A DNA stretch of 64,000 nt from Thermoplasmata archaeon (lineage in GTDB: Archaea > Thermoplasmatota > Thermoplasmata > Lutacidiplasmatales > UBA184): assembly GCA_035532555.1 (NCBI GenBank), contig DATKQS010000024.1, forward strand, positions 11,225 to 75,224, written 5' to 3'. The notes below the pieces were generated by a model. The model searched no databases and was not told where the DNA came from. It was given only the letters and a program-made list of their open reading frames with translations. This document shows positions 2,234 to 29,250 of this stretch, piece after piece; positions within the stretch are counted from its first letter, which is position 1; each line of letters opens with the position of its first letter. Both the position numbers and the translations under genes were made by a program.

Positions 2234-2534
2234 GAAGTTCGATCGTGCAGATCGGCATCGGAGGAGACTACGGACCACTACACTGATCCGTGGCCATTCG
2301 CGTCAGTCGTCAGGAAAGTGGTTCGTAGTAGTACTCACCGACTGACGAGAGCCCGGCCCTTTTCGACGCTCATCCGACCGGCCTACTCGGTGCAAGAGAT
2401 CGCTAACTCCCTGACTGAAACGTGCCGACGAACCCACTTCGGTCCTCCACCGAAGGCGGCGAACCGTTTCCCCGGGGCGACGGGAGATCCGTCCCCCGGG
2501 ACCAACCCAGCCGCTCGAAGTCGGCTCCGCGAGT
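2234..2534. repeat. Repeat copy A: left part is ~88% identical to 29144-29250 and right part is ~80% identical to 15681-15906. It contains a pseudo-copy of the last 9 codons plus stop of ABCE1.
   Basis: Direct alignment of the three regions. The shared core is caggaaagtggttcgtagtagtactc at 2311-2336, which is the reverse complement of ...EYYYEPLS*. The plus-strand ORFs 2105..2554 and 15690..15908 across the repeats show no excess of synonymous changes and are probably not coding. Confidence 0.8.
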
Positions 2535-2673
2535 CCGATGCTCGCCGCGGGTAGTCGGTTTGTTTGGGTCCACGCGGACTTGAACCGACGACCTCCCGGC
2601 TCCGAGCCGGTCCACTCACCCTCGCCTACGCGAAATGCCACTCGGAGGGCCGGGGTTGCACCCTCGTTCCGCT

Positions 2674-3735
2674 TCAAGCAGTCGATGCCGGAATCGGATC
2701 AAGCGGGTGGGCCCTCGTACGTGCCGGTGGTACCTGGTCCGCATACCCAAGGCTCGCTTTGAAACGGTCGATCGCTCCGGTCTCCAAAGGAGCCGATCGG
2801 AGGCGGTCGGCAAGGAAGAGGCTGAAGAAGTCGCCGAGAACGACGCCCCCGAGCGTGTACTCCAGCGAATCGTTCCCAGGGAGTCGAACGACCCGGGCGA
2901 ACGCCGCCCGCCGGCGCACCAAGCGCTCGAAGTGGACACACCCCTGAGCGACCGGTCGCAATGTCTGCGCACAAGTCAGAAGGATAACGCCCCACCGATT
3001 GGCGTCGGAACTCGGGAGCGCATCCCAGCCGGCAATCGCGTTGTGAAACGCACCGGGAAGCTCATCTAACATCGCGAGGCGCTTGGCATTCTCTTCCACC
3101 CCCGTTTTCCAGCGGCGGGCGATCGGCAGGAGACCGGCCTCGGCGTAGATGATCGGGGTCCTTCGCCCGAGAGCCTCAGCGAGAGCTGCGGCCGGACCCC
3201 GAGGACTCGCGTACCGACTCCGCATCCTGTGGATCCGCCGAACCGTGCCGGCGATCCGATCCGCATTCGATACGGCCAGCCAGGAATCGAACAGTCCGAG
3301 GAGCCCCCCTAGGGCGGACCCGACGGTGGTCCGCGGGGGCCGATCGGGAGCGAGCCGAAAGATCGGGACTCCCTCTCGGTCCGCGCGTTCGTGCAGTTGG
3401 CCCCCGGCTGTGAAGACGATACGACACGCGCCGCGCCGTCCGGCCTCCTCGTACGCGCGCAGTACCTCCCAGGTCTCTCCTGAATGACTCGAGAGGATCA
3501 CAACCGAGCCGGGGCCATGCTCGGGAGGAAGCGAGGGGCCTCGGACCACCCGGATCGGCAAGCCTCCCTCTCCGCCGAGGACGACGCTCGCAAGCTCCCC
3601 TGCAGTAGCGGATCCCCCCATGCCGACGATGATCACCGGGGCCCGAGGGATGCGAAGGGCCGAGCCTGACAGGCATGCTCCTTCGCGGAATCCGGGCTCG
3701 ATATGATCGGGCAGCTCGCCGAGGAAGGTGCGCAT
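2674..3735 (-). CDS. SIS-domain bifunctional phosphoglucose/phosphomannose isomerase (archaeal PGI/PMI type)
   Basis: SIS-fold motifs (VIIVGMGGSATAGELASVV..., VVILSSHSGETWEVL) with a PGI/PMI C-terminal region. Start chosen at Met127 of the long ORF (MRTFLGELP); the ATG complement is at 3733-3735. The upstream part of the ORF is Arg-rich junk. Confidence 0.7.
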   Translation of the reverse strand: MRTFLGELPDHIEPGFREGACLSGSALRIPRAPVIIVGMGGSATAGELASVVLGGEGGLPIRVVRGPSLPPEHGPGSVVILSSHSGETWEVLRAYEEAGRRGACRIVFTAGGQLHERADREGVPIFRLAPDRPPRTTVGSALGGLLGLFDSWLAVSNADRIAGTVRRIHRMRSRYASPRGPAAALAEALGRRTPIIYAEAGLLPIARRWKTGVEENAKRLAMLDELPGAFHNAIAGWDALPSSDANRWGVILLTCAQTLRPVAQGCVHFERLVRRRAAFARVVRLPGNDSLEYTLGGVVLGDFFSLFLADRLRSAPLETGAIDRFKASLGYADQVPPARTRAHPLDPIPASTA

Positions 3736-3874
3736 CTGGTCTAGCTCGCTCACCCCAGGGCGAACCGGGGCTAGCGACGGTGAGGAGAATGATTGCGACG
3801 GGGCCTTGCTAGACGAACCGTCGGCGAGCCGGTCCGCTCGTCTCCGGTGGCGGCCGCGCCGGCCAGGGTGCCCC

Positions 3875-5908
3875 TCATCGAACCGCCGGTACATGCGGCG
3901 ACGCTCCCCTCCCTTCTCGGCCCGTCTTCGCGTGCCCGTTCTCCGAATACTGCCTTCGCAGTTGCTCGAATCGACGGGATGCAAAAACGAGGCGCTGCCC
4001 ACCTGTTTCGGTGCGGAATTCGTCCTCCGAAGTCCCTCGACGACGGGCGTGCGCGTTCCGGACGAGGCCCGCGAGCTGCAGGTACGTCGCGAGGAGGGGA
4101 TATGCGATCGCATTCAGCATTCGGATCCCCGTTGGGGCTCGTTGAGTCGCGATGCCGCCCGGCGATCGGGTCCGCGAGTCGTAGAGATAGGGGAGCTCGG
4201 CGCGCATCCACCCGGCGGAGGCCAACACTCCACGATAGTACTCCTCCCCATGGAGCACGTGGACGCTCAGAGCCTCACGGGCAAAGAGCAGATCGCGCGG
4301 TCGCGCGAACTCGGGAGACACCGCGCGATCTTCGAGCACGTAGTTGAGGCACGGGGTCGGGCCTCGGAGGGGAGCCGGTCGTCGCCGCGAGAGGAACAGC
4401 GAGAAGTACGCCCGAGCAAGGAACCACCAGAGCGCGCCGGACCGGGTCACGACGAACAGATCGAGGTCGTCGTCCGGGAGCGGCTCATCGAACGCCACCG
4501 AGCCCGTGATACCGATGCAGCGGACGAGATCCCTACTGAAGGAGAGTGGCCCGCGCCAAAGGGAGTCGGCGAACTGACGAAACTCGAACGCGCGGGGGCC
4601 CCGGTCTCCGGTGGGACTCACGGGCGTCGTCGGCGCGTATGCCTGCGCGTTCCGTACCTGCGCGAGCCACGGTCGCTCTCGGAGCCAGCGTTCGAGCGCG
4701 TCGACGCTCTCCGGTCCGTTGGCGGGGAGGAGCCGCTGGAGTCTCTCAAGGGGGATGCCGGTCCCGAACTCGCCTGCGACGAGAAGAAGCGACGCCACCC
4801 GGCGCTCCGTTGGGGTGGCGCCTGACGCCCCATCGAAGCTGGTCGACGATGACGTGCCCTGGGCGCCCGGCGGGGGCGTGGAGGAACCAATGCGCCGCCA
4901 ACGTACGTGGTCCCGTCGAGGCGGCAGCCGATCCCACGCCGCCAGACCATGGGCCGCGAGTTCCCACGTCGCCAGTCGGGCCAAGTGTCCAAGCCCCCCT
5001 TCGCGGTCAATCATCCCTCGGACCACTCGGACCGTGGCCGCCGGGTGGCGAAGGAACTCGCGGGGAATCGTCGCCGGGGCGTCCCCCAATACGGAGGAGA
5101 CCTGGGCATTGCCGACGTGGATTCGTCGCCGCTGGTGGAGATGGTCGCGCACCTCAGAGGGAACCCGGATCGAAACTCGGGCGTCAGGCGCGTACCACCC
5201 GCCCCCGGCATGCTGCGACAGCCAGACGGCGAGGTACGATCCGTCGTTGATAATCCCGTCTGGGATGGCTGGCACGCTCGGCAGACTTACGAGGAGCAGC
5301 TCGTCGGAAAGATGGCGACCCTCCCCGCGGGCGAGCAGCTCCGCATGGAACTCGTGGTGGAGGTCCCACATCCATCGGAACGTGGGGGCCCACCGCCCCG
5401 GCGCATCGTCCGGGACCACCGGACGCGCCATCACCGCATACGGAGCTGCCCGTGCTGCCCCGACCCGTACGAGTTCCGCGATTGCTCCGGGCTCGGCTCG
5501 GGCATCGCCATTGAGCAGCACAAGGGCATTCCCTTCGGCCCGCCGGAACACCTCTTGGAGGGCCCGGGCCTTTCCCCGGCGTTCCGGCTCCGTGATCAAG
5601 CGCACCCGGCGATCCTCTGACACAAGTCGCTCCGCGATCTCTACGGTCCGGTCCGCGCAGCCGCTCGCGACAATCCACAGGTCATTCCACCGAACGTCCG
5701 AAGGCAGTTCTTGGTCGAGTAGCGAGCGCACGGCCCCCTCGAGGTTCTGCTCCTCGTTGTAAGCGACGATCCCCCCGGAGAGGTTCGTTGGCGACTTCTC
5801 CTCGTACGTAAGGTTGTAGCCGGCAGACAGCCGAGGTGCGCTCGAGACCGACACGTTACTCTCGCCCCAAGCGGAGCGATGGCCCCACATCTGCCGGAAG
5901 CCGCGCAC
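3875..5908 (-). CDS. Family-2 glycosyltransferase fused to a C-terminal minimal nucleotidyltransferase (Pol-beta-like) domain
   Basis: N-terminal GT2 signature (GGIVAYNEEQNLEGAVRSL...LWIVASGCADRT...LLNGDA). The C-terminus has GITGSVAFDEPLPDDDLDLFVVT, the GS-x9-D-x-D nucleotidyltransferase motif. The start codon is uncertain. Confidence 0.65.
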   Translation of the reverse strand: MRGFRQMWGHRSAWGESNVSVSSAPRLSAGYNLTYEEKSPTNLSGGIVAYNEEQNLEGAVRSLLDQELPSDVRWNDLWIVASGCADRTVEIAERLVSEDRRVRLITEPERRGKARALQEVFRRAEGNALVLLNGDARAEPGAIAELVRVGAARAAPYAVMARPVVPDDAPGRWAPTFRWMWDLHHEFHAELLARGEGRHLSDELLLVSLPSVPAIPDGIINDGSYLAVWLSQHAGGGWYAPDARVSIRVPSEVRDHLHQRRRIHVGNAQVSSVLGDAPATIPREFLRHPAATVRVVRGMIDREGGLGHLARLATWELAAHGLAAWDRLPPRRDHVRWRRIGSSTPPPGAQGTSSSTSFDGASGATPTERRVASLLLVAGEFGTGIPLERLQRLLPANGPESVDALERWLRERPWLAQVRNAQAYAPTTPVSPTGDRGPRAFEFRQFADSLWRGPLSFSRDLVRCIGITGSVAFDEPLPDDDLDLFVVTRSGALWWFLARAYFSLFLSRRRPAPLRGPTPCLNYVLEDRAVSPEFARPRDLLFAREALSVHVLHGEEYYRGVLASAGWMRAELPYLYDSRTRSPGGIATQRAPTGIRMLNAIAYPLLATYLQLAGLVRNAHARRRGTSEDEFRTETGGQRLVFASRRFEQLRRQYSENGHAKTGREGRGASPHVPAVR

Positions 5909-6004
5909 GCGATTCGGTCACCACGCTCCAATCGAGGGGGGCCACGACGAGCTCAGTGTCGGCGCTTCCGAGCCGTCCCGCCGACAGAATCGATCGCGGC
6001 AGAG

Positions 6005-6982
6005 CTACTCCTCCGCATACTCGCTGTCGGAGAGTTGCTGCCGGACTCGGCGCGCTCCGACGGCGATGATAACCGAGACGACTCCCGCGAGACTCCCCAC
6101 GACCACAAGCTCGTAGAGGGGGATGCCCGCGATGGATGAGGGAACCGGAATCCCGATCACGGCCGCGTACCGAAGGGAGGAAAACTCTCCTGCCCCGGAG
6201 CCGATCGTCAGGTTGACCGACGCGAAGCTCGGAGTCAGCCGGATGAGGGGTACGACACCGACCGGCTCTGTGCGGCCCCCGACGCCGGCCGCGGTGGCGT
6301 TGTCCGAGAGCACCAGATACTCCCGGAGGGCTCCGGTCGCGGTGGACGAGCTTGTGATCTCGAGCGCGTCCGGGCCGGATGCGCCGAGACGCTCGGTGGA
6401 GGCGAATGCGGGCCAGACGGGAAGGTTCACGACGAGATGATCTCCCGAGGCCTGCCAGGTCCAGTTGGAGATTTGGAGAAGCGCCTCGACCGAGCTCGCA
6501 TTCCCTTCGTAGGCGTCGCCCCCTCCGGCGAGGATGTAGTCCACTTGGACCTCGGTCGTTCCGATCGGCGGTGCGGGTGCGCCGGGGACCACGAGCACCA
6601 GATCGGCGGTGTAGGCGAGGTCGAACTCGCTCGGGGTGCTCGCGTTCCGGAGCGTCCAGTTAGCTCCTGCCCAGTCGGCGAGGGCGACCACTTGGCCCGC
6701 CGGACTGACCTCGGCGATCCCCGCGACACCGGAGGAGAGGCCCGACTGCGGGACGTCCACCGCCGCGACCGCGACCGATGGGCTGGTCAGGTTGAAGTCG
6801 CACGCCACGAGTCCGTTGTTCCATCCGAGCGATGTCGACGGGGTCCACCGTCCCGAGGCGCCTTGCGCGGCGGCGAGCGGAGAGATCGCAACGATGAGTG
6901 CGAGGGTCACCGCAAACCCCGCCATCGCGAGGGCGACGGGAGCGGTGGCCCGGGCCCGGCTCCTCCTGCCATCTGCGATCAT
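6005..6982 (-). CDS. Secreted or surface-anchored glycoprotein: N-terminal signal with twin-Arg and hydrophobic segment, many N-x-S/T sequons, C-terminal TM anchor
   Basis: MIADGRRSRARATAPVALAMAGFAVTLALIVAISPLAAAQG signal peptide. At least 10 NxS/T sequons (NLTS, NWTL, NASTP, NASS, NWTW, NATA, NLTI...). C-terminal LYELVVVGSLAGVVSVIIAVGARRVRQQ anchor. The composition is Thr/Ser/Ala-rich. Confidence 0.65.
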   Translation of the reverse strand: MIADGRRSRARATAPVALAMAGFAVTLALIVAISPLAAAQGASGRWTPSTSLGWNNGLVACDFNLTSPSVAVAAVDVPQSGLSSGVAGIAEVSPAGQVVALADWAGANWTLRNASTPSEFDLAYTADLVLVVPGAPAPPIGTTEVQVDYILAGGGDAYEGNASSVEALLQISNWTWQASGDHLVVNLPVWPAFASTERLGASGPDALEITSSSTATGALREYLVLSDNATAAGVGGRTEPVGVVPLIRLTPSFASVNLTIGSGAGEFSSLRYAAVIGIPVPSSIAGIPLYELVVVGSLAGVVSVIIAVGARRVRQQLSDSEYAEE

Positions 6983-7060
6983 TGCGAAGGATGCGAGACG
7001 CTCCCAAGGTAACCCCTTTTTTGGTCCAAGTACGGAATCCATTGGTTCAGAGGCGCACCG

Positions 7061-7588
7061 CTATCGACGAAACAACTCAGACCAGGTTTCGAAGGCCCGT
7101 TCCACCCACTCGTCCGCCGGCCCGCTCCGGTACGTGACGAGGATTCGCGCGACACCCGCCGCATCGGTGACCTCGAACGTTCGGAGGCGACCTTCGCGTC
7201 CGGGTCGAACGACCCCGGTTTCGACGAGCCGTCGCAGATGGACCGAGAGGCGGCCGGCGCTCAAACCAGTTCGAACCTTCAGATCGGGAACGGTCTGGTG
7301 CGGAGTCTTGAGCAGCGCGATGAGGAGTCGGCGCGCCGACGCCGATCGCATGAGACGCAGGATGCGACGGTCGCCGAGCGGCACGCTCGCCACGAAGTAA
7401 TGGTCCTGGCGCTCGCTGCGCTCGCGATGGAGCAACCCCGACCCGGTAAGTCGATCGAGGTGATAGACCGTCTCGCCCCAACCCGTCCCGGCCTTTCGCT
7501 GGGCTTCCCGTCCGCTCAGCCCCGGAGTTCTCCGAACCGCGTCGTAAATGCGTCTTCGGGTCTCGAGGGCGAGCGGGTCCTCCTCCAT
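7061..7588 (-). CDS. Winged-helix (ArsR/MarR-like, tandem wHTH) transcriptional regulator
   Basis: Two HTH-like segments: RRRIYDAVRRTPGLSGREAQRKAG...VYHLDRL, and RRLLIALLKTPHQTVPDLKVRTGLSAGRLSVHLRRLVETG. Confidence 0.6.
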   Translation of the reverse strand: MEEDPLALETRRRIYDAVRRTPGLSGREAQRKAGTGWGETVYHLDRLTGSGLLHRERSERQDHYFVASVPLGDRRILRLMRSASARRLLIALLKTPHQTVPDLKVRTGLSAGRLSVHLRRLVETGVVRPGREGRLRTFEVTDAAGVARILVTYRSGPADEWVERAFETWSELFRR

Positions 7589-7591
7589 CGG

Positions 7592-7906
7592 CTAGCGGCG
7601 GCGGGGCCAGAGCGTGGTCGCCAAAAACAGAAGCGATGCGAGGAGCGCGAGCGTGAGGACGGGGAGTGCGGCGTCCGCGAACGACGGCGGGCCGACCGGT
7701 AACTGCCCCCACGTCCACACCGCTCCGAGGGCCGCTAGGACGAGGTTCGCCGAGGCGATGAGGAGAAATCTCGCATCCCGCACTCGGGTCCACGCCGCCA
7801 CGGTGACGCCGGCATTGATGGCAGAGACTCCCACGATCAGAATCGCGACGAACAGCTCGGCGAGACCCATGGAACGCAGGATGGGGCCCCCCCGGGTTAA
7901 AGCCAT
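7592..7906 (-). CDS. Small integral membrane protein (3 TM)
   Basis: Hydrophobic helices (LAELFVAILIVGVSAINAGV..., LLIASANLVLAALGAVWTW..., LPVLTLALLASLLFLATTLW). Start taken at the internal Met (MALTRGG). Adjacent to and co-directional with the wHTH regulator. Confidence 0.45.
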   Translation of the reverse strand: MALTRGGPILRSMGLAELFVAILIVGVSAINAGVTVAAWTRVRDARFLLIASANLVLAALGAVWTWGQLPVGPPSFADAALPVLTLALLASLLFLATTLWPRRR

Positions 7907-7998
7907 CGACTCGCCGAACGGGTTTGGACCAAGTAATTCCGTGTTTGGACCAAAAAGAGAGTGACACCCTCGACCACTCGACCGTTCGGAGCGATCGC

Positions 7999-8472
7999 AT
8001 GACGAGCATTCGGGACCGACTTGCAGATCCGGCCTTCTACTCACTCCCGTTCTTCCTCGCGTTCGCCCTCTCGGTGGTCATGCTGGCCACCGACAAGAAT
8101 CTCCAGACGAACTTCGGCACGGTCTCGAGCGGCTACTACTTCCATTGGTACGTCGTGCTGGTCACCGCCGTCGCGGAGATCGCCGGCGCGGTGCTCCTGC
8201 TCGTTGTTCGTTCCCGCGCCGCGTTCATCGGCGGGGTGATCGGCTCCGGCCTCCTGGCAGCGATCTTCCTCGGCGATATCTTCGCGTACAGCCAGGTCGG
8301 ATTCTCTTCGATGACCGACTTCGCGAACTACCTCTTCGGGATCACCTACTACGGGGGCAACATCCGCTACCTGTATGATGTCCTGCTCGCCGTCTATCTC
8401 GCGACGTTCCTCTTCGGACTGGTCGCGCTCGCCTTGACGCGACGGCCCCGGGCGAGCCCTCCGCGCGCGTGA
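7999..8472 (+). CDS. Integral membrane protein (4 TM), unknown function
   Basis: Hydrophobic profile. Start taken at MTSIRDRL. Confidence 0.45.
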   Translation: MTSIRDRLADPAFYSLPFFLAFALSVVMLATDKNLQTNFGTVSSGYYFHWYVVLVTAVAEIAGAVLLLVVRSRAAFIGGVIGSGLLAAIFLGDIFAYSQVGFSSMTDFANYLFGITYYGGNIRYLYDVLLAVYLATFLFGLVALALTRRPRASPPRA

Positions 8473-8542
8473 TCGGCGGAGCGATCGTTCGATCGGGGTT
8501 CGCGACCCACGGGGCGAGCGATCCCCGAAGCAGGTCGGCATC

Positions 8543-9862
8543 GTGAAACTTCCGGCGGTGGCGTGGAAGATTCTCCTCGCCGGGATCCTTCTTCGAGAGG
8601 CGTTCTCGTTCTGGACCGGAAACCCGTACGACCTTGAGGTCTGGATCCGTACGGGCCATGCCGCCGCGCAGGGCATCAACCCGTACGTGTCGTTCTGGCC
8701 GCCGGTTCCCTCGGTCAGCTTCGCCTTCTTGAACACCAATCTGCCGTCGGCAGCCTACCTTCCGTTCTGGCCCGCCGTCCTCGGGGAGATCTATCGGCTG
8801 TGGGAGGTAATCGGAGGCGGTAATCGCTTCGTCCTGTACTTCCTCATCAAGCAGCCGCCGATCCTGGGAGACGCCCTCACGGCGGTGCTCCTGTACGGAC
8901 TGACCCTGCGCTGGACCGGAAGGAGCGCGTCCGCGCTCGGGGCGCTCGCGTTCTGGTCGCTCTTCCCCTATGCGATCCTGATCTCGGCGATCTGGGGCCA
9001 GTTCGATTCGCTCGTGGTCGCCGCGATCCTCGCCGGTTTCTGGTACCGCAATCCGATCGAACGAAACCTCCTGTACGGCGTCGGCATCTTCGTGAAACTG
9101 ATCACGGCGATCTACCTCCCGCTCGAGTTCTTCCGGGCGCGCGGCGTGCGCCGGTTAACTTTCCTCGTGGCCCTTGCCGTCCCGGTCGCGTTGACCGTCC
9201 TTGTGCTCACCGCGGAAGGGTGGGGGTTCGGCGGGATCACGTCGACCGGACAATCCCAAAGTGCTGGGGGGGGCGGTGGAATGAACCTCGCGGGCGTGCT
9301 GACCGCGGCGCCCTTGGTGACCGTCCTCTCGACGGTCCCTCACTTGTTCACGTTGTTCTCCTACTTGTGGGTGCCCGGCGCGATCCTGGCCGGCTATGTG
9401 GCCGCTCGGTGGATCCGCCCGAACGACCCTCAGACGGAGTTGCGCGCCATGATGCTCGTCACGACTGTGTTCCTGCTGTTGCGCTGGGGCCTCTACGAAC
9501 AGTACATGATCTACATCTTTGCCCTGATGGCCCTCGACAGCGCGGCGTTCCATCCGGACCGCCGATCGTACCTCGTCTACCTCTGGTTGCTCTCGCTGGT
9601 CTTCCTGCTCATCAACAACGACCTCGGAGCCCGATTCGTCACCCCGCTCGACACCAATCTCTGGCCCACGCTCAGCAACTTCGACCAGAGTTCCGTCTAC
9701 GGGACCGTCCGATCCTGGGCGCTCGAGATCCTGGACGTGGTCGTCACGTTGAGCCTCGTCCAGTGGATCGTCGAGCTGGTACGGGACGGCGCTCGTCCCG
9801 TCCCGTGGCTTTGGCCGTGGACGAAATCCGCCGCGCTCGCCGCTCGGCCCTCCGAACCGTGA
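8543..9862 (+). CDS. Polytopic membrane protein, GT-C-fold glycosyltransferase-like (DUF2029 / PMT / mannosyltransferase-like)
   Basis: About 11-12 TM helices. N-terminal loop with the conserved D/E (WTGNPYDLEVW). Aromatic- and Pro-rich loops typical of GT-C enzymes. Lies in a glycosyltransferase neighbourhood. Confidence 0.55.
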   Translation: MKLPAVAWKILLAGILLREAFSFWTGNPYDLEVWIRTGHAAAQGINPYVSFWPPVPSVSFAFLNTNLPSAAYLPFWPAVLGEIYRLWEVIGGGNRFVLYFLIKQPPILGDALTAVLLYGLTLRWTGRSASALGALAFWSLFPYAILISAIWGQFDSLVVAAILAGFWYRNPIERNLLYGVGIFVKLITAIYLPLEFFRARGVRRLTFLVALAVPVALTVLVLTAEGWGFGGITSTGQSQSAGGGGGMNLAGVLTAAPLVTVLSTVPHLFTLFSYLWVPGAILAGYVAARWIRPNDPQTELRAMMLVTTVFLLLRWGLYEQYMIYIFALMALDSAAFHPDRRSYLVYLWLLSLVFLLINNDLGARFVTPLDTNLWPTLSNFDQSSVYGTVRSWALEILDVVVTLSLVQWIVELVRDGARPVPWLWPWTKSAALAARPSEP

Positions 9863-11746: not shown

Positions 11747-11905
11747 AGGCCCGGAAGCGATACAGACATTCTGACATATAGCAGATCGGCGGACAGAACT
11801 GCATCCACCCGACGACCGCCGAGCGGAGGGGGGCGTCTGCCCGGTGACCGCCGATCCGTCCCGCGGTCCCTTTCCAGGCGCGTCGGTGGCCCTACGCCCG
11901 ACCGA

Positions 11906-20943: not shown

Positions 20944-20968
20944 TGGCTGATGTCCTTCCGTAGGCTGC

Positions 20969-21217: not shown

Positions 21218-21429
21218 CGCTCTCCCTCCCAGCGACCGTACTCTCTGGAAACCCTTGAAGCGGAATCCGAATGGGTTCGGTCGGAACTTCCCGAGCCCGC
21301 GCGGACCCTCTCATCCTCTCGCGGTGGACACCGACCGAAAAGATCCGGGGCGGCCGAACCCTTTCGGTCTTCCCTTCTTGCCGAGAGAAGTCTCTGCCTC
21401 TTGCGGGGGCAGACCTCGTCAGCGAACTC

Positions 21430-21981
21430 ATGTCGAAGCCGGCCGGAGCCCTAGAGGAACTGCACCGGGAGCACGAGGTCGCCGAGCGCCTGCTGGAACG
21501 ACTCGTGGAACTCGGAGACCGGATGAAGTCGGGGGAGCGAGTCGATGCCAAGGCCGTCCGCTTCGGAGTCGGCCTGCTAGACGCGTACCTTCACCGTGTT
21601 CACGCCTCGCAGATGGACCGCGAACTCCGCCCCGAAGCGCAGGGCGTCGCGATGCCGGGCTGCTTTGAGCACCTGGACCGGATGCGAACCAACCATGAAC
21701 AGATGCGGGCTCGAGCGCGGGAGCTCCTCGCCCTCATCGGCAGATGGGCTTCCGGGGACGAATCCTGCCGTGGGGCAGCCGGCGACAAGCTCATCGACCT
21801 CGCAAGCAGGGACCATGACGCCGCCACCTACGAGGAGGCGTACCCGCTCATCTGCCTGGAGTCAGCGCTACCCGAAGACGCCGAGAACCGCCTCTCGAAC
21901 CGGTTCTCGGATCATGCGGGGACCCGGGCGGCGCTCGAGGCGAACATCGAACGGTTCCTCTCCGAGACCGTGGCGATCTAG
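21430..21981 (+). CDS. Hemerythrin-like (HHE cation-binding) domain protein
   Basis: LEELHREHEVAERLLERL, then H/E-rich helices (HRVHASQMDRE, CFEHLDRMRTNHEQM). Paralogous to 23752..24633. Start taken at MSKPAG. Confidence 0.55.
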   Translation: MSKPAGALEELHREHEVAERLLERLVELGDRMKSGERVDAKAVRFGVGLLDAYLHRVHASQMDRELRPEAQGVAMPGCFEHLDRMRTNHEQMRARARELLALIGRWASGDESCRGAAGDKLIDLASRDHDAATYEEAYPLICLESALPEDAENRLSNRFSDHAGTRAALEANIERFLSETVAI

Positions 21982-22062
21982 ATTCCCCATTCGAGGGTAC
22001 TCGGACCTCCGAGCTGCCGCTCGTCCGTTAAGGAAGCCGGGGGTTCGGTCGCGGGCCCCCGT

Positions 22063-22797
22063 TCAGTACCGCTCCACAAAGACATGGTCCTTGGGGCAGT
22101 TCAGGTGGAGCGCGAGCTCCTGGGTCTCGTTCACCATGGCCGGGACGCCGCAGACGTAGACATCCGAGTTCGATAAGTCTGGGAATCGCTCGCGCAGAGC
22201 TCCTTCCACGTGGCCAACGGCACCGTGCCACGTCCCATTTGCCGGAGGGCGCGAGAGGACCGGTACGAAGTGGAACGCCGGCCAAGCGATCTCAAGTGCG
22301 CGCATCTCGTCGAAGTAGAACAGATCCTCCCGGAAGCGCTCGCCGAAGATGAGCCAGGTGGGGGTTTGGGGGGAGTGAGCTCGGATATCGTCCAGCATGG
22401 GGATGAATGGGGCGAGCCCCGTCCCGGTCGCCACGAACACGGCGGTCCTATCTCCGGGAGGATCCAGCAGGAAGCGTCCCAGTGGAGCTAGCCCCTTCAG
22501 CGTCGGGTGGCTCTCGGGGGCGAGGCCGCAGAGGAAGGTCGAGCCGTATCCGCCAGGGACCTGCTTGATGAGCAGATCGAACTGCCCGACCTTCCCGGCC
22601 GCTGAGAAGAACGAGTAGGAACGGGTGATCGAGTTCCCCGCCCTCGAGAGGTAGAAGGTAACGTACTGGCCGGGAGCGAACGCGAAGCTGTCATCCCGGG
22701 CCGTACGGAAGGTTAGGACGTGGACCGAGGGTACGATGATCCGGTTCGACTCAAGGGTGAATTCCCTCTTGCGCGGTGTCTCCATGATACTGGACAA
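22063..22797 (-). CDS. FNR-type FAD/NAD(P)-binding oxidoreductase (ferredoxin-NADP reductase family)
   Basis: RSYS FAD-binding motif (NSITRSYSFFS), FVATGTGLAPFIPML NAD(P)-binding motif, and C-terminal YVCGVPAMV. Confidence 0.8.
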   Translation of the reverse strand: MSSIMETPRKREFTLESNRIIVPSVHVLTFRTARDDSFAFAPGQYVTFYLSRAGNSITRSYSFFSAAGKVGQFDLLIKQVPGGYGSTFLCGLAPESHPTLKGLAPLGRFLLDPPGDRTAVFVATGTGLAPFIPMLDDIRAHSPQTPTWLIFGERFREDLFYFDEMRALEIAWPAFHFVPVLSRPPANGTWHGAVGHVEGALRERFPDLSNSDVYVCGVPAMVNETQELALHLNCPKDHVFVERY

Positions 22798-22869
22798 GGC
22801 GGCCAGCGGCTTACCGGTGCGCCGAAACGGTTCGGTGGACGGCCGTTGCCCCCTCGCGTGAGGGGCGTC

Positions 22870-23592
22870 CTAGCTCCCCGGCGGCCAGCGCTCGAGCAGT
22901 TTCTTCTCGACGATTGCCAACGCCTCGGAAAGGCTTGAGACCGCCATCCGTTCCTGGGCGGCAAGACGGGTCAGGGTAATCTTGCGGGGAACGTCGAAGT
23001 ATCCGGCCGCCATCGCCCGTTGGAGCAACTCGGCCTGACGAGGAGTGAGCGCCTCTCTTCCAGTCGTGACCTCTGAGTGACGGACCGACTCGAGGATCAC
23101 TCCCGGTGCGCGCTGTGACAACTGGTCGAGGAGTTGGCGTATCTTCTGCTCCGAAGCGATCACGACCCACGATGCCTCTCCGGCCCGTATCGTGAATGGA
23201 AAGCGTCGCAGCAGGTAGAGCTTCCGGAAAATCGGAATGAACGGGGAGGTGCGGTGGATCACTCGGAGGTGAACCTCCCGGGGCCCGGACGTGAGGAACT
23301 CCACCTTTTCCACCAGGTCTATGGCGTGGAGCTGGTCGGCCCAAGGGCCGGGTTCGGTTACGTGGAGGCGCACCTCGCTGAGGCTCCGACGCGCCCCCAG
23401 GTCAAGGTTGCTCAGCACCTCGATGGTCACGTCGGGGTGCTCCCGGGAGAAGCGGGCAATCCAAGCGGAGTCCGGGAGGGGCACCCGCAAGCGACAGATG
23501 CGCGTCGGCCCGGGAACGGGCTGGGGGGCTTTCGTCGGATGGACCCGTCGGGTCGTCCCCCGCGACCGGGCGAGCTGGGCGCGAGGGACCAT
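22870..23592 (-). CDS. Bat-like (bacterio-opsin activator family) HTH_10 transcriptional regulator
   Basis: C-terminal LTPRQAELLQRAMAAGYFDVPRKITLTRLAAQERMAVSSLSEALAIVEKKLL is the archaeal HTH_10 signature. Confidence 0.75.
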   Translation of the reverse strand: MVPRAQLARSRGTTRRVHPTKAPQPVPGPTRICRLRVPLPDSAWIARFSREHPDVTIEVLSNLDLGARRSLSEVRLHVTEPGPWADQLHAIDLVEKVEFLTSGPREVHLRVIHRTSPFIPIFRKLYLLRRFPFTIRAGEASWVVIASEQKIRQLLDQLSQRAPGVILESVRHSEVTTGREALTPRQAELLQRAMAAGYFDVPRKITLTRLAAQERMAVSSLSEALAIVEKKLLERWPPGS

Positions 23593-23751
23593 GCCCCGCG
23601 AGCCGCCGGGGAGGGCATATTCGTTTCGGAGCCCCCGGAAGTCGAATCGGGGAATCCAATTCGCCGGAGCATCGTCCGCCGAACCCTCTAGGTCCGCGCC
23701 TTAACCGACGACACAACCATACCGTCGCGAAAGTCCCACGGAGAAAAAACG

Positions 23752-24633
23752 ATGAACGCAATCGAAGCACAGGACCCACTAGACGAGCTAGAGCGTGAGA
23801 ACGACGTCGCGGAGAAGTTGATCGAGCGTCTAGCGGAGATGGCGATAGTGTTGAAGGAGGGCCGGAACCTACCGCCCGGAGAAATCAGCGAAGGACTCCG
23901 CCTCCTCGAGCAGTATCGCACCGTGCATGCCGCTCGAGTCGACGTCGACCTGAAGGTCGAGGCAAGGCCCTGGGCGATGAGCACCTGCTTTCAGCATCTC
24001 GATGCGATCGCCAACGATCACCAGACGGAAGGCGATAGGATCGCCCGGGCCCAGGAGGCGCTGAAGGAGTTCACACTCGATCCTGAGGAAGCCAGGGCAC
24101 GACTATCCCAGGCGTTGGCCGACCTGACAGAGAAGGACCACCAGAGCTTGGTTTACGAGAATGACTACCCCCTCTCCTGCCTCCGGGCCGCGCTCCCCGA
24201 CGGTGCTGCTTCTCGAGTCTCCGCGGCGTTCGAGGCGACATCCTCCGCTATCGCGGACTTGGATGGGCACATCGTCCGGTATCTGGAGCATGCACCGGGA
24301 ACGCCAGGGCATGGGTTGACCGTGCGCTGCAGCCGGGCGAACTGCGAGGCGAGCGCCGAGTCGCACGTGGTATCCTCGAACGATGGCCGATTGGGAATCG
24401 AGGTACCTCTAGGCTGGCAGGTGGCTCCCCAATCGCCGAACTTCAGTAAGGACCGGACCATCCGTCTAAAGGTCGATTTCTGTTGCCCGGCGCACCACGA
24501 GAAGTGTTTGGCGCACGAGGGAAAGGCGCTCCCCATGTGGATGGATGAGGGGGGTCTCGGGCCGCAAAGAGAAACGACTGCAGGTCGTGGGTCCGGTGGC
24601 TGCTGCGGACCGATCCCAGAGGATGCCCGGTGA
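23752..24633 (+). CDS. Hemerythrin-like domain protein with a Cys-rich C-terminal extension
   Basis: LDELERENDVAEKLIERL plus H/E helices, paralogous to 21430..21981. C-terminal CSRANCE...FCCPAHHEKCLAHE...GGCCGP suggests metal binding. Confidence 0.55.
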   Translation: MNAIEAQDPLDELERENDVAEKLIERLAEMAIVLKEGRNLPPGEISEGLRLLEQYRTVHAARVDVDLKVEARPWAMSTCFQHLDAIANDHQTEGDRIARAQEALKEFTLDPEEARARLSQALADLTEKDHQSLVYENDYPLSCLRAALPDGAASRVSAAFEATSSAIADLDGHIVRYLEHAPGTPGHGLTVRCSRANCEASAESHVVSSNDGRLGIEVPLGWQVAPQSPNFSKDRTIRLKVDFCCPAHHEKCLAHEGKALPMWMDEGGLGPQRETTAGRGSGGCCGPIPEDAR

Positions 24634-25151
24634 GGCTCGACTTGCTTCCATCCGCAGTGGCTCCACCCATTCACCGCGCCGTCCCCTCCTCGGATGGCCT
24701 GCGACTCATCGCGTCCGGCATGGTGTACTTGCTCGTCGTGTGCGGCGTCGTGCTCGTCACGAGTGCCCAGTCGATCCTCGGAGGAGCGGCTTCTGTGCCG
24801 AGCCGCCTGTTCGACGATCGGGACCTGGTCGCCCTCTTCGGCTGGGTGGGAATGATGATCACCGGGGTGAGCGTCATCATCATACCTAACCACCTCGGAG
24901 TCCGTCTTCGACCGCTGTATCTCCCACGGCTTCACTTCGTTCTGGCGAACGTCGGGCTTGCCGGGTTCTTCGGTGCGGACCTTCTAGCGCCCGGGTCCGC
25001 TGCACCGGAGGTCTTCTTGGGGTTGGTCGCGGCTTCGTTCTTGATCTTCGGGCTCGGAGCACTCGCGACGGTTGCTCCCTTCGTTCATCTCTCTCGGTCC
25101 CGGTCAAGGGTCGCGACCACGACCTCAGGCGAGCATCGAACGACGGACTGA
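24630..25151 (+). CDS. Integral membrane protein (4-5 TM)
   Basis: Hydrophobic helices. Start overlaps the stop of the upstream hemerythrin-like gene. The real start may be the internal Met at ~24720. Confidence 0.45.
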   Translation: MRLDLLPSAVAPPIHRAVPSSDGLRLIASGMVYLLVVCGVVLVTSAQSILGGAASVPSRLFDDRDLVALFGWVGMMITGVSVIIIPNHLGVRLRPLYLPRLHFVLANVGLAGFFGADLLAPGSAAPEVFLGLVAASFLIFGLGALATVAPFVHLSRSRSRVATTTSGEHRTTD

Positions 25152-25527
25152 GCGACGCCTCTTCGTTCCGGGGAACTCGTCGAATTTCTCGACCCGGACG
25201 AATGAACTAGCGTGTCCAGACCAGTTCGATCGTGAGATGAGCGGTCGCTCCTCCTGCAAGGAATAAGACGCCGCAGCGAAGATTGCCGCGTCGATATCTC
25301 GAATCAGTCGTCCGTCTCTTTCTTCTGCTGACAGCCGCCGGTCTCCCACAGCGCGTGGCATCCTCGTGCCCGGACCGATCCATGGCTATCGTTAGAAGAA
25401 GGGCGGAGCGGTCTGCGGGAGGAATGCGAGAGCTCGTCTCGGGCCCACCCTCTCCGGATACCAGGCGGCTCTGCTCGTTCTACTACTACCACTCGGTGCC
25501 GTAACACGCGCCGCTCGGGCGTGCGAC

Positions 25528-25812
25528 TCACTTGTAGACCGACTGGTAGGTCTTCCCCTCGTCGTCCCAGATCGTGATGCAAGAACCCTCGCATTCCGTT
25601 AAGCAGGCGTTGCAGAGAATGCAGTCGGGGCCCTGCTCGGCCACGGACTTCTCCGCACGGAATTGGAACTTCGCCGCGACCTCGGCATCGTCTATAACAT
25701 CGGGGAATTCGGTGCGGACGTGCATCACGAACACGTTCACGGGGCAGACGTCGAAGCAGTGCCGGCAACCCGTGCACTTCTCGGTTTGGACCTTGACGTC
25801 CACGGATCTCAT
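25528..25812 (-). CDS. 2x[4Fe-4S] ferredoxin
   Basis: CTGCRHCFDVCP and CILCNACLTECE cluster motifs. Start at the internal Met (MRSVDVKV). Confidence 0.8.
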   Translation of the reverse strand: MRSVDVKVQTEKCTGCRHCFDVCPVNVFVMHVRTEFPDVIDDAEVAAKFQFRAEKSVAEQGPDCILCNACLTECEGSCITIWDDEGKTYQSVYK

Positions 25813-26207
25813 CCCCCCAGGCCCGGCATGCAACCGGCATGGCAGAGGGCGAGGTTCTGGGGAACGTTCAACCCCCCGGCAACCAGAGGCAACCGAAGAG
25901 CCAAACTGAGACAAGATCCCTGCGGGGCACGAGACGAAGGGCCGGTAGGTAGAGCCACCTCCCCTTCGCACACGGAACACCTCGGACCCAGTTTGTCGAG
26001 CTCCCACTGGAGCGCAAGAGCGTACATCGGAGCGGTGGGACGGTAGGATCCGGGCGGCTGAGCCCTCCAGACCTCCTCGTGACGTTCCACCAGTCGGCGA
26101 ATCACGCTCTCTAGCACCTCGTGTTGGCTACGGAAGTGCGTCTTGGCCAGCGCATTCAACCTCACCCGCGTCCACTCGTTCGCCGGGCTGACGTTCTGGT
26201 TCCTCAT
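25809..26207 (-). CDS. Hypothetical protein with a possible ribbon-helix-helix N-terminus, immediately upstream of ferredoxin
   Basis: MRNQNVSPANEWTRVRLNALAKTHFRSQHEVLESVIRRLVERHEE. Its stop abuts the ferredoxin start. Confidence 0.35.
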   Translation of the reverse strand: MRNQNVSPANEWTRVRLNALAKTHFRSQHEVLESVIRRLVERHEEVWRAQPPGSYRPTAPMYALALQWELDKLGPRCSVCEGEVALPTGPSSRAPQGSCLSLALRLPLVAGGLNVPQNLALCHAGCMPGLGG

Positions 26208-26642
26208 CTTCCCTCTCTATTCCGTACGGTCAATACGAAGCGATTGGATAACGCCGGTCATGGAGGTCCTGTCCCGCTGCTAGCACGGAATTCCTTCACA
26301 CGGGGGTCCGAGAGTTTCCGCCAGTCCCCACGGCCTCTGCGTCGACGCGTGATAACAGCAGTTCCGACTCCCTCGCGTGGGATCCGACGGTCACCCGGTC
26401 GGGCGGACCCGGGCCTACGATGAGCGGAGTGTCTTCCGATCGCACCCGCGTCGGAGCTACAAGAGCCACCCGTACGTCGAACGGATTGAGCTACAGGTCG
26501 GACCCGGCGCCGCATCGTTTTCGCGGCGGGAGCGAAGAGCATCTTCTGGAGATCGGGAACCATCTTCACCATGGTCACGATGAGCATCCAACGTCCTCCA
26601 CGAAGACTCGGCCCTCACCTCAGCCGGTGGCCGGTCTCCCCT

Positions 26643-27014
26643 TCAACCCCGGAGGCGTTCCTCGAGGGACTCTCGGAGGACAGAGGCATTGCAGTGCTCG
26701 GCGTCGTGCGCAGCGAAGAGGAGGGTGACGACCCCGGAGCGCGCTTCCCGCACGAGTCGGTCGAGTAGGTCGGAGTGCTTCCCGAGTTCCGTGCGGTAGC
26801 GTCTCCGAAAGGCGGGGTACTTCTGGGGGTCGTGCCCAAACCAAGTACGAAGTCCCGGCGAAGGGGCGAGGTCCTTGAGCCACTCTGTGAGACGGAGACT
26901 CTCCTTCTTGAGTCCCCGCGGCCAGAGTCGGTCGATAAGGTAGCGCCGCCCATCGGTCGGCGCGGGTGGCTCATAGACCCGCTTGGTTTGGATGCTCATA
27001 CGGGTTGCCTGCAC
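26643..27014 (-). CDS. DUF488-family protein
   Basis: RVYEPPAPTDGRRYLIDRLWPRGLKKESLRLTEWLKDLAPSPGLRTWFGHDPQKYPAFRRRYRTEL matches the DUF488 signature. Confidence 0.7.
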   Translation of the reverse strand: MQATRMSIQTKRVYEPPAPTDGRRYLIDRLWPRGLKKESLRLTEWLKDLAPSPGLRTWFGHDPQKYPAFRRRYRTELGKHSDLLDRLVREARSGVVTLLFAAHDAEHCNASVLRESLEERLRG

Positions 27015-27277
27015 GGATGAGAGACTATTGAATCATTTGTCGCGCGACACACTTTCGGTGCGTCACGATCGAGGACTCCACCTCTTCTCGGGCGTCACGA
27101 CCCGCGACGTCCCACTCTGACGGCGGGGTCAGGACATTCCCCGCCTCCGGGCCACCCTCCCTCCGGCGGGCAAACCGCTCCGGTCGCATCGAATGTGCCG
27201 TCGACCTTGAAGATGGCTACTGTCCTCAAGAACCGTGTCTGGGTTCTGAGGAATGTGCGGCTTCCTCGGGAGGACCC

Positions 27278-27753
27278 CTACGGCTCGTGCCGGTTCTGCT
27301 CGGGCTCCCCGAGCTCCCGGTGCACCGCCCTTGCATCGCTGTCGGAAAGGTGCGTGTCGAACCAAGGGTAGACGGCATCTTCCTCGCGAGCGTTGTGAGC
27401 CCAGAGGACGTTGACGAGCTCGAACTCCAGATCCTCGGTCGACGCCAGCCCTTCGTCCAGCCGGAGTCGGATCCTTCGCAGAACCTCCTCGATCCGTCGG
27501 TGCTCGTCCAGCATCCGGTCGACCAAGGCGCGACGGGAGGGATCCGCTTCCGCAAAGACGGGGAAGAGAAGCCGCTCTTCGACCTCGATGTGGCGACTCA
27601 GGTCGGTCGCGAACCGCTCGAAGCGTCCGCGACGCTGAGCCGCCGCGGATACGGGAGTCGCCTGGAACTCCTCGAACTTCAGGTTGAGTTCTCGGTGGTC
27701 GTTCGACAGCAGATGCGACGGCAGCTCGTTCGTGTGGTTCATCGGCTGCTCCA
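27278..27753 (-). CDS. Hemerythrin HHE cation-binding domain protein
   Basis: HRELNLKFEEF...HIEVEERLLFPVF...HRRIEEVL...NAREEDAVYPWF is the classic H/E pattern. Start at MEQPMNHT (ATG complement 27751-27753) overlaps the end of the upstream membrane gene. The longer ORF extending to 28897 is an out-of-frame artefact. Confidence 0.7.
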
Positions 27754-29007
27754 TCTTTCTCGAATGGTCCGGATCTCCTCGCTGGTCAGTCCCGGCAGGG
27801 GATTGAGTCCCCTGTAAAGGACCGGTACCGTACCGACCCCCCATGCAATGGCCACTCCGAGAAGGATGGCCCCCGAGAACGGCGCCAACCAACTGGTACC
27901 TACCCATCCTCGGGCGCCCGCCGTTGCGGCGGCGGCCACCCCGGCAACCCATACCACGGAGAGCGCCCAGAGCATGCGTCGGGTCCAGGCGTGGGAGATA
28001 CGCTGGAACGGCGCGATCATCCCGAACCACATGGCCAGGATCATGAGCCCCACGAAGCCCAGGACGTTGACGAGTGCGTGGGCAATGACCAAGGTGTAAT
28101 TCGACTCGGAGACCATCCAGAGGCCGATCGCTCCACCGACCAGAAAGAACGTCGCTCCCATCAGGTGTAGGCCGGCCTCGGCACGACGAGTCCGGGCCCG
28201 CCTCACGAGGATGATCAGCATGGAAACGAACAGGATCCCGAATGCGGCCTCGGGCGCCGCGAAGACGACGATGTCGCCGGTCGGGAGAGGAGGGGTTGCG
28301 AGCATACCGCTGGGAACGAGGATCGCGCCCGCGATGGCGAGGCCGGCGAGCAGGTAGACCAGCGGACGCGAAACGTCTGCGCCCAGGAACCGGGGCACGA
28401 GGCGGAGGCTGACCGCCGTGATGAGGAGAATGACGTGCCCGAGGACGAACAGGTGTACCGCGCCGAGCCACCAGCCATACCCGGGCCCCTCCGCAAATCC
28501 GGAAAGGACGAACATCCCTCCCGCGCTCACCGCTGATGCCCACGAAGCAAGAAAGAGGGGAACCGTGACGGCATCGCCCGGCCGGGCCTCGGGACCGGGA
28601 GTCTCCACCCGGGGTTGAAAGAGTCCGTAGGCGAAGAGACCGGAAACAGTTCCCACGCCGCCCAGGAACAACATCGCCCCGAGGGAGAAGACCCATCCCG
28701 GGATTGGAGGTGAGGTCGCTTCGGAGAGGCCGACGGCCCCGAGGACGAGTCCCCCCTCGGCGAGGAGGAACGCAGCCTGAGCAACCCATGGGGGTGGCTG
28801 GGGTCGCCGAGCGATCGTCGGAAAGAGGTGGAGAGCGAATCCGGCCGTTGTGAACCCGACGAAGCCGATGAGGAGAAGCCAGAGGAGAAAGTCCCAACGC
28901 ACGGTGAGTGCCCCTACTCCCGAGCCCAGCAGCAACACGGCACCTGCCGCCGCGAGATGGACCAGAGCTGAGGTGAGAAACTGACGGGAAACAGCGGAGA
29001 GTGGCAC
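27739..29007 (-). CDS. Polytopic membrane protein (~12 TM), possibly NnrS-like, forming an operon with the hemerythrin gene
   Basis: 422 aa, strongly hydrophobic with about 12 predicted helices and conserved His (ALHLFPTIARR, HLFVLGHVILLI, HALVNVLGFV). Confidence 0.5.
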   Translation of the reverse strand: MPLSAVSRQFLTSALVHLAAAGAVLLLGSGVGALTVRWDFLLWLLLIGFVGFTTAGFALHLFPTIARRPQPPPWVAQAAFLLAEGGLVLGAVGLSEATSPPIPGWVFSLGAMLFLGGVGTVSGLFAYGLFQPRVETPGPEARPGDAVTVPLFLASWASAVSAGGMFVLSGFAEGPGYGWWLGAVHLFVLGHVILLITAVSLRLVPRFLGADVSRPLVYLLAGLAIAGAILVPSGMLATPPLPTGDIVVFAAPEAAFGILFVSMLIILVRRARTRRAEAGLHLMGATFFLVGGAIGLWMVSESNYTLVIAHALVNVLGFVGLMILAMWFGMIAPFQRISHAWTRRMLWALSVVWVAGVAAAATAGARGWVGTSWLAPFSGAILLGVAIAWGVGTVPVLYRGLNPLPGLTSEEIRTIRERWSSR

Positions 29008-29143
29008 GCCTCGCTAAGCGCTGGCGGACCTATATTCTCCGCTAGGCCCGCTCCGTGTCTCCGCCCTGACCCTCCAGCCTGCGCCGCACACGATGCTCTT
29101 GGACGTGCGTCGGTTCAGGGGCGACAGCGCTCTTTCGACCCGT

Positions 29144-29250
29144 AGAACTTCGATTGTGCAGATCGGCGTCGGAAGAGACTACGGACCACCACACGGATCG
29201 CTGGCCATTCGCGTCCGTCATCAGGAAAGTGGTTCGTAGTAGTACTCGCC
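29144..29250. repeat. Repeat copy C: ~88% identical to 2234-2342. It spans the native ABCE1 stop (29219-29221) plus ~75 bp downstream.
   Basis: Alignment with copy A. The core corresponds to the real ABCE1 C-terminus ...GEYYYEPLS*. Confidence 0.8.

Follow-up and report, generated by a model that had tools for sequence, protein, structure and literature searches.

Three copies of the ABCE1 gene end bracket two probable integrated islands in an uncultured soil Thermoplasmata archaeon

In Streptococcus thermophilus, the ICESt1-related elements include cis-mobilizable elements (CIMEs) and accrete in tandem at the 3′ end of their target gene (Pavlovic et al. 2004, reviewed in PMC5704250). In archaea, the chromosomal attachment (attB) sites of integrated elements are mostly tRNA genes, and the protein-coding targets named in a 2021 review, none of them tested, are HMG-CoA reductase, a metal efflux gene, and an AsnC regulator (PMC8371274). 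ABCE1 is not among the protein-coding targets in that review, and the literature searched under the names ABCE1 and RNase L inhibitor contained no occurrence of this gene as an integration target. Here, we describe a 64,000-nucleotide stretch of DNA (hereafter, the window; positions 11,225 to 75,224 of contig DATKQS010000024.1, assembly GCA_035532555.1) from an uncultured Thermoplasmata archaeon of soil or peat, in which the last codons of ABCE1 (RLI) are found three times and bound two gene islands. ABCE1 is a universally conserved, essential gene of archaea and eukaryotes. The source is a metagenome assembly of the k141 class, in which the window lies within the 243-kb contig k141_910329 (ENA ERZ27256801). 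We consider it probable that the three repeats are attachment (att) junctions of a tandem island array that arose by tyrosine-recombinase insertion into the last ~9 codons of ABCE1.

The repeated core, CAGGAAAGTGGTTCGTAGTAGTACTC, is 26 nt long and lies on the forward strand at 2311 to 2336 (copy A), 15683 to 15708 (copy B), and 29222 to 29247 (copy C), so that direct repeats of the target gene's end, all in one orientation, bound both islands; 100 shuffles of the sequence yielded no copy by chance. The coding sense of all three is on the minus strand, where copies A and C, which are exact, read ...EYYYEPLS-stop, while copy B, which has one mismatch (G>C at 15693), is a pseudo-tail that reads ...EYYYEALS-stop. 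A preliminary description of this DNA had reported three copies of the ABCE1 end in the same orientation, and core search and alignment bear this out; the core is, however, 26 nt long rather than the 27 nt given there, the starts of copies B and C lie one base further along, and copy B is not identical to the others. Copy C had been taken as the functional gene end, and indeed it provides the final codons (...GEYYYEPLS-stop) of an intact ABCE1 of 591 amino acids (29221 to 30996, minus strand). This target gene is a complete open reading frame (ORF) with all of the expected Pfam domains (Fer4_RLI, Fer4, and two ABC_tran), as it should be if an insertion had left it whole.

The sequences on either side of the core form a mosaic. 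Outside the core, the left flanks of copies A and C are identical at 72 of 83 positions (87%), and a gapped local alignment between them runs over 2194 to 2346 against 29102 to 29257. The right flanks of copies A and B are identical at 185 of 231 positions (80%), or at 82% over 2308 to 2567 against 15680 to 15939 when the core is included. Both values agree with the earlier estimates (~88% and ~80%). We refer to the shared left sequence as the L arm (2194 to 2310 at copy A and 29102 to 29221 at copy C, 87% identical) and to the shared right sequence as the X arm (2337 to 2567 at copy A and 15709 to 15939 at copy B, both on the forward strand). The L arm at copy C lies directly past the ABCE1 stop codon and opens with a TGACG-type motif. 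On the left of copy B is a different sequence, the Y flank (15439 to 15682), which we take as the proximal end of island 1. Neither the left flank of copy B nor the right flank of copy C, which is ABCE1 coding sequence, matched any other flank (local alignment scores of 13 to 14), in keeping with the earlier remark that the left flank of copy B is unique; the Y flank also lacked similarity to any of the fetched loci. The mosaic of L arm, core, and X arm that had been proposed is therefore real, but X is a conserved element arm rather than anonymous sequence, and L need not be host DNA.

Since the source is a k141 metagenome assembly, a chimeric contig joined at short repeats is an explanation to be weighed. 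The exact repeats (26 to 39 nt) are far below the assembly k-mer, however, and each junction recurs in independent samples and in other pipelines. Junction A was also found in contigs of ERZ27256814 and SRR8554485, junction B in four other assemblies (ERZ27256814, JGI 3300031670/71, and SRR8554501), and junction C in the independent Logan assembly SRR8554483. Because all three junctions recur in independently assembled contigs of other samples, mis-assembly is excluded for all practical purposes.

To place the locus among its relatives, we used a reference set of one genome per species, comprising 80 related Thermoplasmata genomes. The best ABCE1 matches are all from uncultured soil and peat Thermoplasmata, with protein identities of 75 to 98%; the window protein is 98% identical to that of the closest relative, L004, over residues 1 to 589. 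The extreme C terminus differs, reading EPLS-stop in the window and in L003, whose ABCE1 is 97% identical and is likewise followed by the L arm, and EPAA-stop in the closest relatives (L004, L005, and L006). Such a difference is expected if an element supplied the codons beyond the crossover. Upstream of ABCE1, the gene order (an ABC ATPase gene, two MacB/FtsX permease genes, and others) is conserved with L004, L005, L006, and L039; downstream of it, these four share no content with the window, and synteny breaks at the att site. The preliminary description had proposed checking whether related genomes lack the segment from 2.3 to 29.2 kb, and the three closest relatives, with ABCE1 identities of 98%, 95%, and 90%, contain none of it. 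The gene directly downstream of ABCE1 in L004 (12535 to 13674) is a ~61%-identical paralogue of a window gene (58673 to 59812, minus strand) that lies ~30 kb upstream of ABCE1, and L004 may represent the unoccupied state of the ABCE1 site. We found no point on the far side at which synteny resumes: in close relatives, the stretch downstream of ABCE1 encodes no syntenic homologue of the proteins from the left of the window. One of these left-side proteins (194 amino acids) recurs ~8 kb downstream of the gene in eight distant relatives, in the opposite relative orientation. The sole tRNA gene that ARAGORN detected in the window, a tRNA-Thr gene at 50056 to 50129, is unrelated to the islands.

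The strongest support for integration comes from the same position in other genomes. A tyrosine-integrase gene or pseudogene lies 40 to 55 nt past the ABCE1 stop codon, convergent with ABCE1, in 7 of the 80 related genomes (L005, L006, L008, L013, L017, L039, and L041), and an eighth (L010) has an integrase 1.65 kb from ABCE1. The integrase frame of L041 is open for at least 270 codons, up to the end of the contig, and the integrases of L041 and of a metagenomic locus, L102, exceed the curated Pfam cutoff for PF00589 (Phage_integrase). In relatives, the integrase ORF includes the C-terminal catalytic tyrosine region and has its own stop codon ~40 nt from that of ABCE1, and the post-stop sequences that adjoin the integrases open with the same TGACG-type motif as the L arm at copy C. 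Second copies of the ABCE1 tail were found at 1.6 kb in L010 and at 3.1 kb in L037. In L006, the element between the ABCE1 tail and a second tail copy is only 1.1 kb and consists of an integrase C-terminal remnant and a RelE-like pair.

Two complete elements reveal the full arrangement. L102 (~5.9 kb) was found among 12 metagenomic loci that were confirmed by a profile of the X arm, and L117 (~5.3 kb) was reached separately, via P0002, a protein match to the X-peptide profile described below. On one strand, L102 consists of flanking sequence, a reverse-complemented ABCE1 pseudo-tail, the X arm, a serine-recombinase gene, and cargo, followed by a MazE-like gene, a full tyrosine-integrase gene, and the real ABCE1 tail. 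L117, whose arrangement is like that of L102, is part of a chromosomal contig (164 kb) that belongs to the same series of samples, and upstream of its ABCE1 are ABC-ATPase and MacB/FtsX genes, as in the window. In both elements, the serine recombinase (PF00239; 318 to 1004 in L102 and 10249 to 10926 in L117) directly follows the X arm, with its start overlapping it, and the tyrosine integrase (PF00589; 5150 to 6052 and 14826 to 15293, respectively) is at the other end. Both carry MazE-like genes, and L117 additionally has HEPN_Swt1/DUF5343 genes. The order of parts in L102 and L117 (L or Y flank, reverse-complemented core, X arm, cargo, and reverse-complemented ABCE1) is that of the window, which differs in that its islands are larger and lack a recombinase. 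From this match in layout, copies A and B are attR-type junctions, with copy A at the far end of island 1 and copy B between island 2 and island 1, while copy C is the attL-type site. Thus, the idea that the repeats are att-like duplications left by integration into the 3′ end of ABCE1, which had been put forward from the window alone, is strongly supported by the integrases and complete elements of relatives. A viral contig collection contained no match to a degenerate X pattern or to the L041 integrase, and the search thus revealed no connection to any known virus.

The two segments between the repeats, each ~13.5 kb long, differ in content. Island 1 carries ~12.9 kb of cargo (2568 to 15438), in which Pfam identifies an SIS/PGI-like gene, two GT2, one GT87, and one GT4 glycosyltransferase genes, a methyltransferase gene, an NAD-epimerase gene, an ArsR/MarR-type regulator, and small genes without assignment. 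The glycosyltransferase, epimerase, and methyltransferase genes uphold the earlier designation of the segment between copies A and B as a glycosylation island. In this island, the ArsR/MarR-type regulator and a small gene lie between the halves of a 41-nt imperfect inverted repeat (7009 to 7049 and 7925 to 7965), which is 76% complementary and locally AT-rich. Island 2 carries ~13.2 kb of cargo (15940 to 29101) with redox and metal genes, namely, those for DUF2249, an FeS-assembly protein, a CopD-like protein, hemerythrins, an FAD/NAD oxidoreductase, a ferredoxin, and DUF488, along with a GT4 glycosyltransferase and an HTH_10 regulator; a polytopic membrane protein of 399 amino acids is encoded next to copy C. 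The Fe-S assembly gene of island 2 (PF01883; 17971 to 18669, minus strand) has a paralogue at ~35450 to 35730, in the conserved region upstream of ABCE1, and tblastx matches to the relatives' copy are ~53 to 60% identical; hence, island 2 duplicates a core function.

Codon composition also sets the islands apart from the ABCE1 side. The mean GC content at third codon positions (GC3) is 0.862 for the core genome (25 genes upstream of and including ABCE1, which at 0.88 is itself typical), compared to 0.766 for island 1 (p = 6e-5) and 0.757 for island 2 (p = 4.7e-7). The two islands are indistinguishable from each other (p = 1), and the drop in GC3 coincides with the ABCE1 stop codon. A comparison of island and core composition had been suggested, and its outcome is divided, in that both islands are lower than the core but the region to the left of copy A is equally low, a point to which we return below.

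A mechanism that accounts for this anatomy can be proposed from the related elements. The attP site of the family would contain a copy of the ABCE1 tail, with the conserved X arm (~170 to 230 nt), inverted relative to ABCE1, on one side and, on the other, a short motif past the stop codon (TGACG...), after which comes the convergent gene of the integrase. A crossover, probably within the conserved GAGTACTACTACGAA (EYYYE) region, would join the element to the chromosome and keep ABCE1 intact, with its final codons now coming from the element. The expected products are an attL site (ABCE1, core, and proximal arm) and an attR site (X arm, core, and the old downstream sequence), such that the end away from ABCE1 would retain a second, non-coding tail copy immediately behind the X arm. 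If a second element then entered the gene-proximal site, the old attL would be turned into a junction of X arm, core, and the older proximal arm, which is the structure of copy B. Under this scheme, copy A would be the attR of an older island 1 (X arm, core, and L arm), and copy C would be the attL of a younger island 2. That the two islands of the window were inserted by this same reaction is suggested by their shared anatomy with the integrase-bearing elements.

The order of arrival may have been different. Rather than island 1 arriving first and island 2 later at the gene-proximal site, a composite of two islands that had accreted elsewhere could have integrated once, leaving copies A and C as the outer att sites and copy B as an internal relic. 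Copies A and C do share a longer and more similar stretch with each other (119 to 153 nt, 87%) than either shares with copy B on that side; the GC3 values of both islands are indistinguishable; and bacteria offer documented cases in which accreted tandems were transferred (PMC5704250). On the other hand, the incoming composite must have carried ~120 nt resembling the host sequence that follows ABCE1. We regard a pre-assembled composite as possible but distinctly the less likely course, and it is a variant of site-specific integration rather than an alternative to it; the data do not separate the order of events.

The islands themselves lack the machinery that this mechanism would require. Scans of the window ORFs against Pfam, NCBIfam, and PHROGs detected no recombinase, no transfer gene, and no viral hallmark. 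The preliminary description had stated that no integrase is present in the window, and all of these scans, as well as tblastn, agree; its suggestion to seek recombinases in the flanking contig yielded none in the 8.8 kb to the left. An integrase gene inside the element and next to an att site, which the window does not have, is present in L041, L102, L104, and L117, with pseudogenes in six more related elements. As neither the window nor the 8.8 kb leftward of it has a recombinase, the islands would be either decayed or non-autonomous, and the integrase may have been lost or only ever supplied in trans. Since they keep attL- and attR-type cores while no integration or transfer genes were detected, the islands look like integrase-less, att-flanked cargo of the cis-mobilizable type.

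Several observations weigh against integration as we propose it. A low-stringency tblastn search of the window for integrase remnants, with the integrases of five relatives as queries, returned noise (best E = 0.3), and the 8.8 kb of contig to the left (L083) contains no integrase or remnant either. Neither an unoccupied site nor a variant with one island alone nor an excised circle was found, and the order is the same in all contigs of the population. The exact core gave no match in viral or metagenome contig collections. Dyad symmetry of a 9-6-9 form is typical of tyrosine-recombinase core sites, and around TACTAC, such a dyad scores only 2 to 3 of 9 in the window cores, compared to 8 of 9 in L104 and 7 of 9 in L088 and L006; because the window cores lack the dyad, we draw no conclusion on the architecture of the core site. 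The 87% likeness of the L arms at copies A and C needs an extra assumption, either related proximal arms or ~120 to 150 nt of att homology. Finally, the region beyond copy A has a mean GC3 as low as that of the islands (0.759 over 11 genes, extending to 8.8 kb beyond the window). This low GC3 continues for at least 11 kb to the left of copy A; thus, composition marks only the ABCE1 side of the array, and copy A is no compositional boundary.

A rival account is an origin without any recombinase, in which the ABCE1 3′ end, with neighbouring sequence, was copied by homologous recombination or by segmental duplication, and the genes in between simply belong to a variable chromosomal region. The lack of a recombinase in the window would suit such an origin, as would the low GC3 that runs past copy A, because the repeats then do not delimit the anomaly on that side. 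However, elements with an integrase duplicate precisely this piece, the ABCE1 tail, in other genomes, and copies A and B carry the inverted X arm that is found at the far end of L102 and L117. Moreover, the core is 100% (A and C) and 96% (B) conserved, whereas the adjoining arms are at 80 to 87%; such a difference between core and arms is more readily understood for a site of recombination than for a duplication in uniform decay. We therefore consider a recombinase-free origin unlikely and retain site-specific insertion into the ABCE1 tail as the probable explanation.

At copy B, the X arm abuts the core opposite the stop-codon side, in inverted orientation with respect to ABCE1. A profile constructed from six X copies matches the window at 2343 to 2510 (copy A; nhmmer E = 5e-39) and at 15715 to 15882 (copy B; E = 6e-42), and it also matches the inverted distal position in L006, L010, L089, L098, L101, L102, and L104. 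Searching a metagenome collection with the degenerate X pattern returned 24 loci, the 12 mentioned above among them being confirmed by the profile. In total, X is conserved at 17 loci or more, which include, besides the window, L006, L010, L011, L018, L043, L058, L088, L089, L092, L096, L098, L101, L102, L107, and L117. Across a 24-codon stretch of 17 copies, the entropy at third positions is 1.17, compared to 0.71 and 0.56 at the other two positions, and the conserved peptide in this frame is [IV]RPxYSExEIAxS[LI]xETCRR. There is no conserved start codon, and in several copies, the frame is lost after ~RSST. In L102 and L117, the end of this frame overlaps the start of the serine-recombinase gene. 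The X arm ends in a strong GC-rich hairpin in all 15 copies that could be folded (at copy B of the window, for example), although the sequence of the stem varies from copy to copy; the loop is mostly a GNRA tetraloop, often with a T-run behind the hairpin. RNAalifold gave no usable consensus structure for 17 copies, which is attributable to the poor alignment of the hairpin region, and folding was therefore done sequence by sequence.

Several identities for X were tried and rejected. Rfam contains no family that matches it, in either gathering or E-value mode, for the window, copy B, or L018. Of 5.8 billion proteins, no more than three, all short hypothetical ORFs, matched a profile of the X peptide, which rules out a piece of a known larger protein. 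X is not the split C terminus of a suicidal integrase, since the integrase has its own stop codon and catalytic tyrosine, and it is not a −1 frameshift extension of ABCE1, since the relation between the X frame and the core frame varies between loci.

X also varies in orientation. In six loci (L018, L011, L043, L058, L096, and L107), X directly follows ABCE1 in the sense orientation and shares its stop codon, and in L088 (744 to 1110) and L117 (9880 to 10250), X lies on both sides of a single pseudo-tail, once in each orientation. Most simply, sense X would be what followed ABCE1 before the integration event, and the element would carry its inverted counterpart. X may be an RNA, a micro-ORF, an arm to which proteins bind, or a combination of these. 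Its features could also be taken to mean that core and X are above all a small gene or a cis element with a function of its own (micro-ORF, terminator, or structured RNA), copied along with its neighbours, and that the link to integration is secondary. This would accommodate the conservation and third-position periodicity, the terminal hairpin with its variable stem, and the six sense copies, which are placed like a 3′ untranslated region or terminator. Nonetheless, the inverted X of the window type was found only at element ends that adjoin a duplicated ABCE1 tail; the lack of an Rfam match, the scarcity of protein matches, and the absence of a conserved start codon offer little for a stand-alone gene; and a role for X of its own would leave the evidence for integration standing. 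We thus consider it quite improbable that function in cis is the primary explanation for the repeats, for which insertion into ABCE1 remains our preferred account.

A bolder proposal can also be made. The islands might be exchangeable cassettes mobilized in trans by elements of the L102 and L117 type, with the ABCE1 tail as the docking platform and the X arm as a working part; X mirrors, in inverted form, the sequence after ABCE1 where X abuts the stop codon, and it combines codon-like periodicity with a GNRA hairpin. We hold this proposal to be doubtful and offer it as speculation. If it were true, the small autonomous mobilizers would consist of an integrase and a resolvase in 5 to 6 kb, the ABCE1 tail would dock surface-glycosylation and redox islands in soil Thermoplasmata, and X would encode an RNA or micro-protein for recombination or its control.

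The region beyond copy A (1 to 2193) has the island-like GC3 noted above and contains a beta-propeller gene, small zinc-ribbon genes, and other small genes. Two of these, at 975 to 1478 (forward strand), overlap and encode 76 amino acids and a 91-amino-acid double zinc ribbon; a degenerate second zinc-ribbon ORF lies at 1494 to 1661. The pair is laid out like a toxin-antitoxin system, and it had no family match above threshold. Farther left, on contig k141_910329 (2427 to 11224, or L083 1 to 8798), are two ChrB_C genes and genes for ornithine cyclodeaminase, ABATE/zf-CGNR, a P-type ATPase, and AhpC. No further copy of the core or of X was found to the left of copy A, whether within the window or over the 8.8 kb beyond it. 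Instead of core flank, this region may be a third island or a variable region of long standing. The L arm common to copies A and C may likewise form the proximal ends of related elements; it would then not be host flank, and a third island would be implied to the left. The variable region may extend to the end of the contig, ~40 kb from ABCE1.

If our interpretation is right, ABCE1 joins a very short list of protein-coding integration targets in archaea, at a site that has been used repeatedly across an uncultured, soil-abundant clade of Thermoplasmata. The window would then show, in an archaeon, islands without an integrase that accreted in tandem, which has been described mainly for bacteria until now, and it illustrates how gene sets for glycosylation and for redox and metal functions may be swapped in these archaea. 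Integration tools for a lineage without genetics could also start from this att site and from L102 and L117, which are small and intact. None of this overturns current understanding.

Two types of element can be set aside. In SSV-type elements, which also use archaeal tyrosine recombinases, attP lies within the int gene and integration splits that gene (PMC7253208); we rejected this identity for the ABCE1 elements because the integrase of relatives stays whole, with its stop codon outside the att core. Casposons have a Cas1-type integrase, terminal inverted repeats, and a target-site duplication. No Cas1 was found among the scanned ORFs, the boundaries here are direct repeats, and the related elements encode PF00589; we therefore rejected this identity as well. 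Like the integrated archaeal plasmids and viruses with classical, non-suicidal tyrosine integrases, the ABCE1 elements have an archaeon as host, an integrase of the PF00589 family that integration leaves whole, and direct repeats by which the target gene is rebuilt (PMC8371274). Repeated use of one conserved protein-coding gene by a dedicated integrase family across many genomes has a parallel in the dusA integrases, although the dusA elements insert into the 5′ end of a bacterial gene (PMC4482086).

For the array as a whole, the closest counterparts are bacterial. The genomic islands at ssrA in Dehalococcoides likewise occur several in tandem downstream of one essential single-copy gene, are separated by ~20-bp direct repeats of the gene's 3′ end, have an integration module that adjoins attL, and include members without the module that were proposed to be cis-mobilizable; a conserved motif lies beside each repeat (PMC3146451). 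They differ in that the target is a tmRNA gene and the enzyme a large serine recombinase, whereas here, the target is protein coding and the enzyme of the related elements a tyrosine recombinase. The streptococcal CIMEs, together with the ICEs (integrative conjugative elements) and IMEs (integrative mobilizable elements) to which they are related, resemble the ABCE1 islands in targeting a conserved gene end, restoring the gene, and forming tandem arrays split by att repeats, and members that lack integration genes retain attL and attR (PMC5704250). The streptococcal elements are bacterial and conjugative, and their mobilization in cis or in trans has been shown experimentally, whereas the ABCE1 islands are known here from their sequence; the ABCE1 target and the integrase lineage are also different. 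What is new here is thus a target gene and a lineage for a well-known mechanism, along with an unexplained conserved arm.

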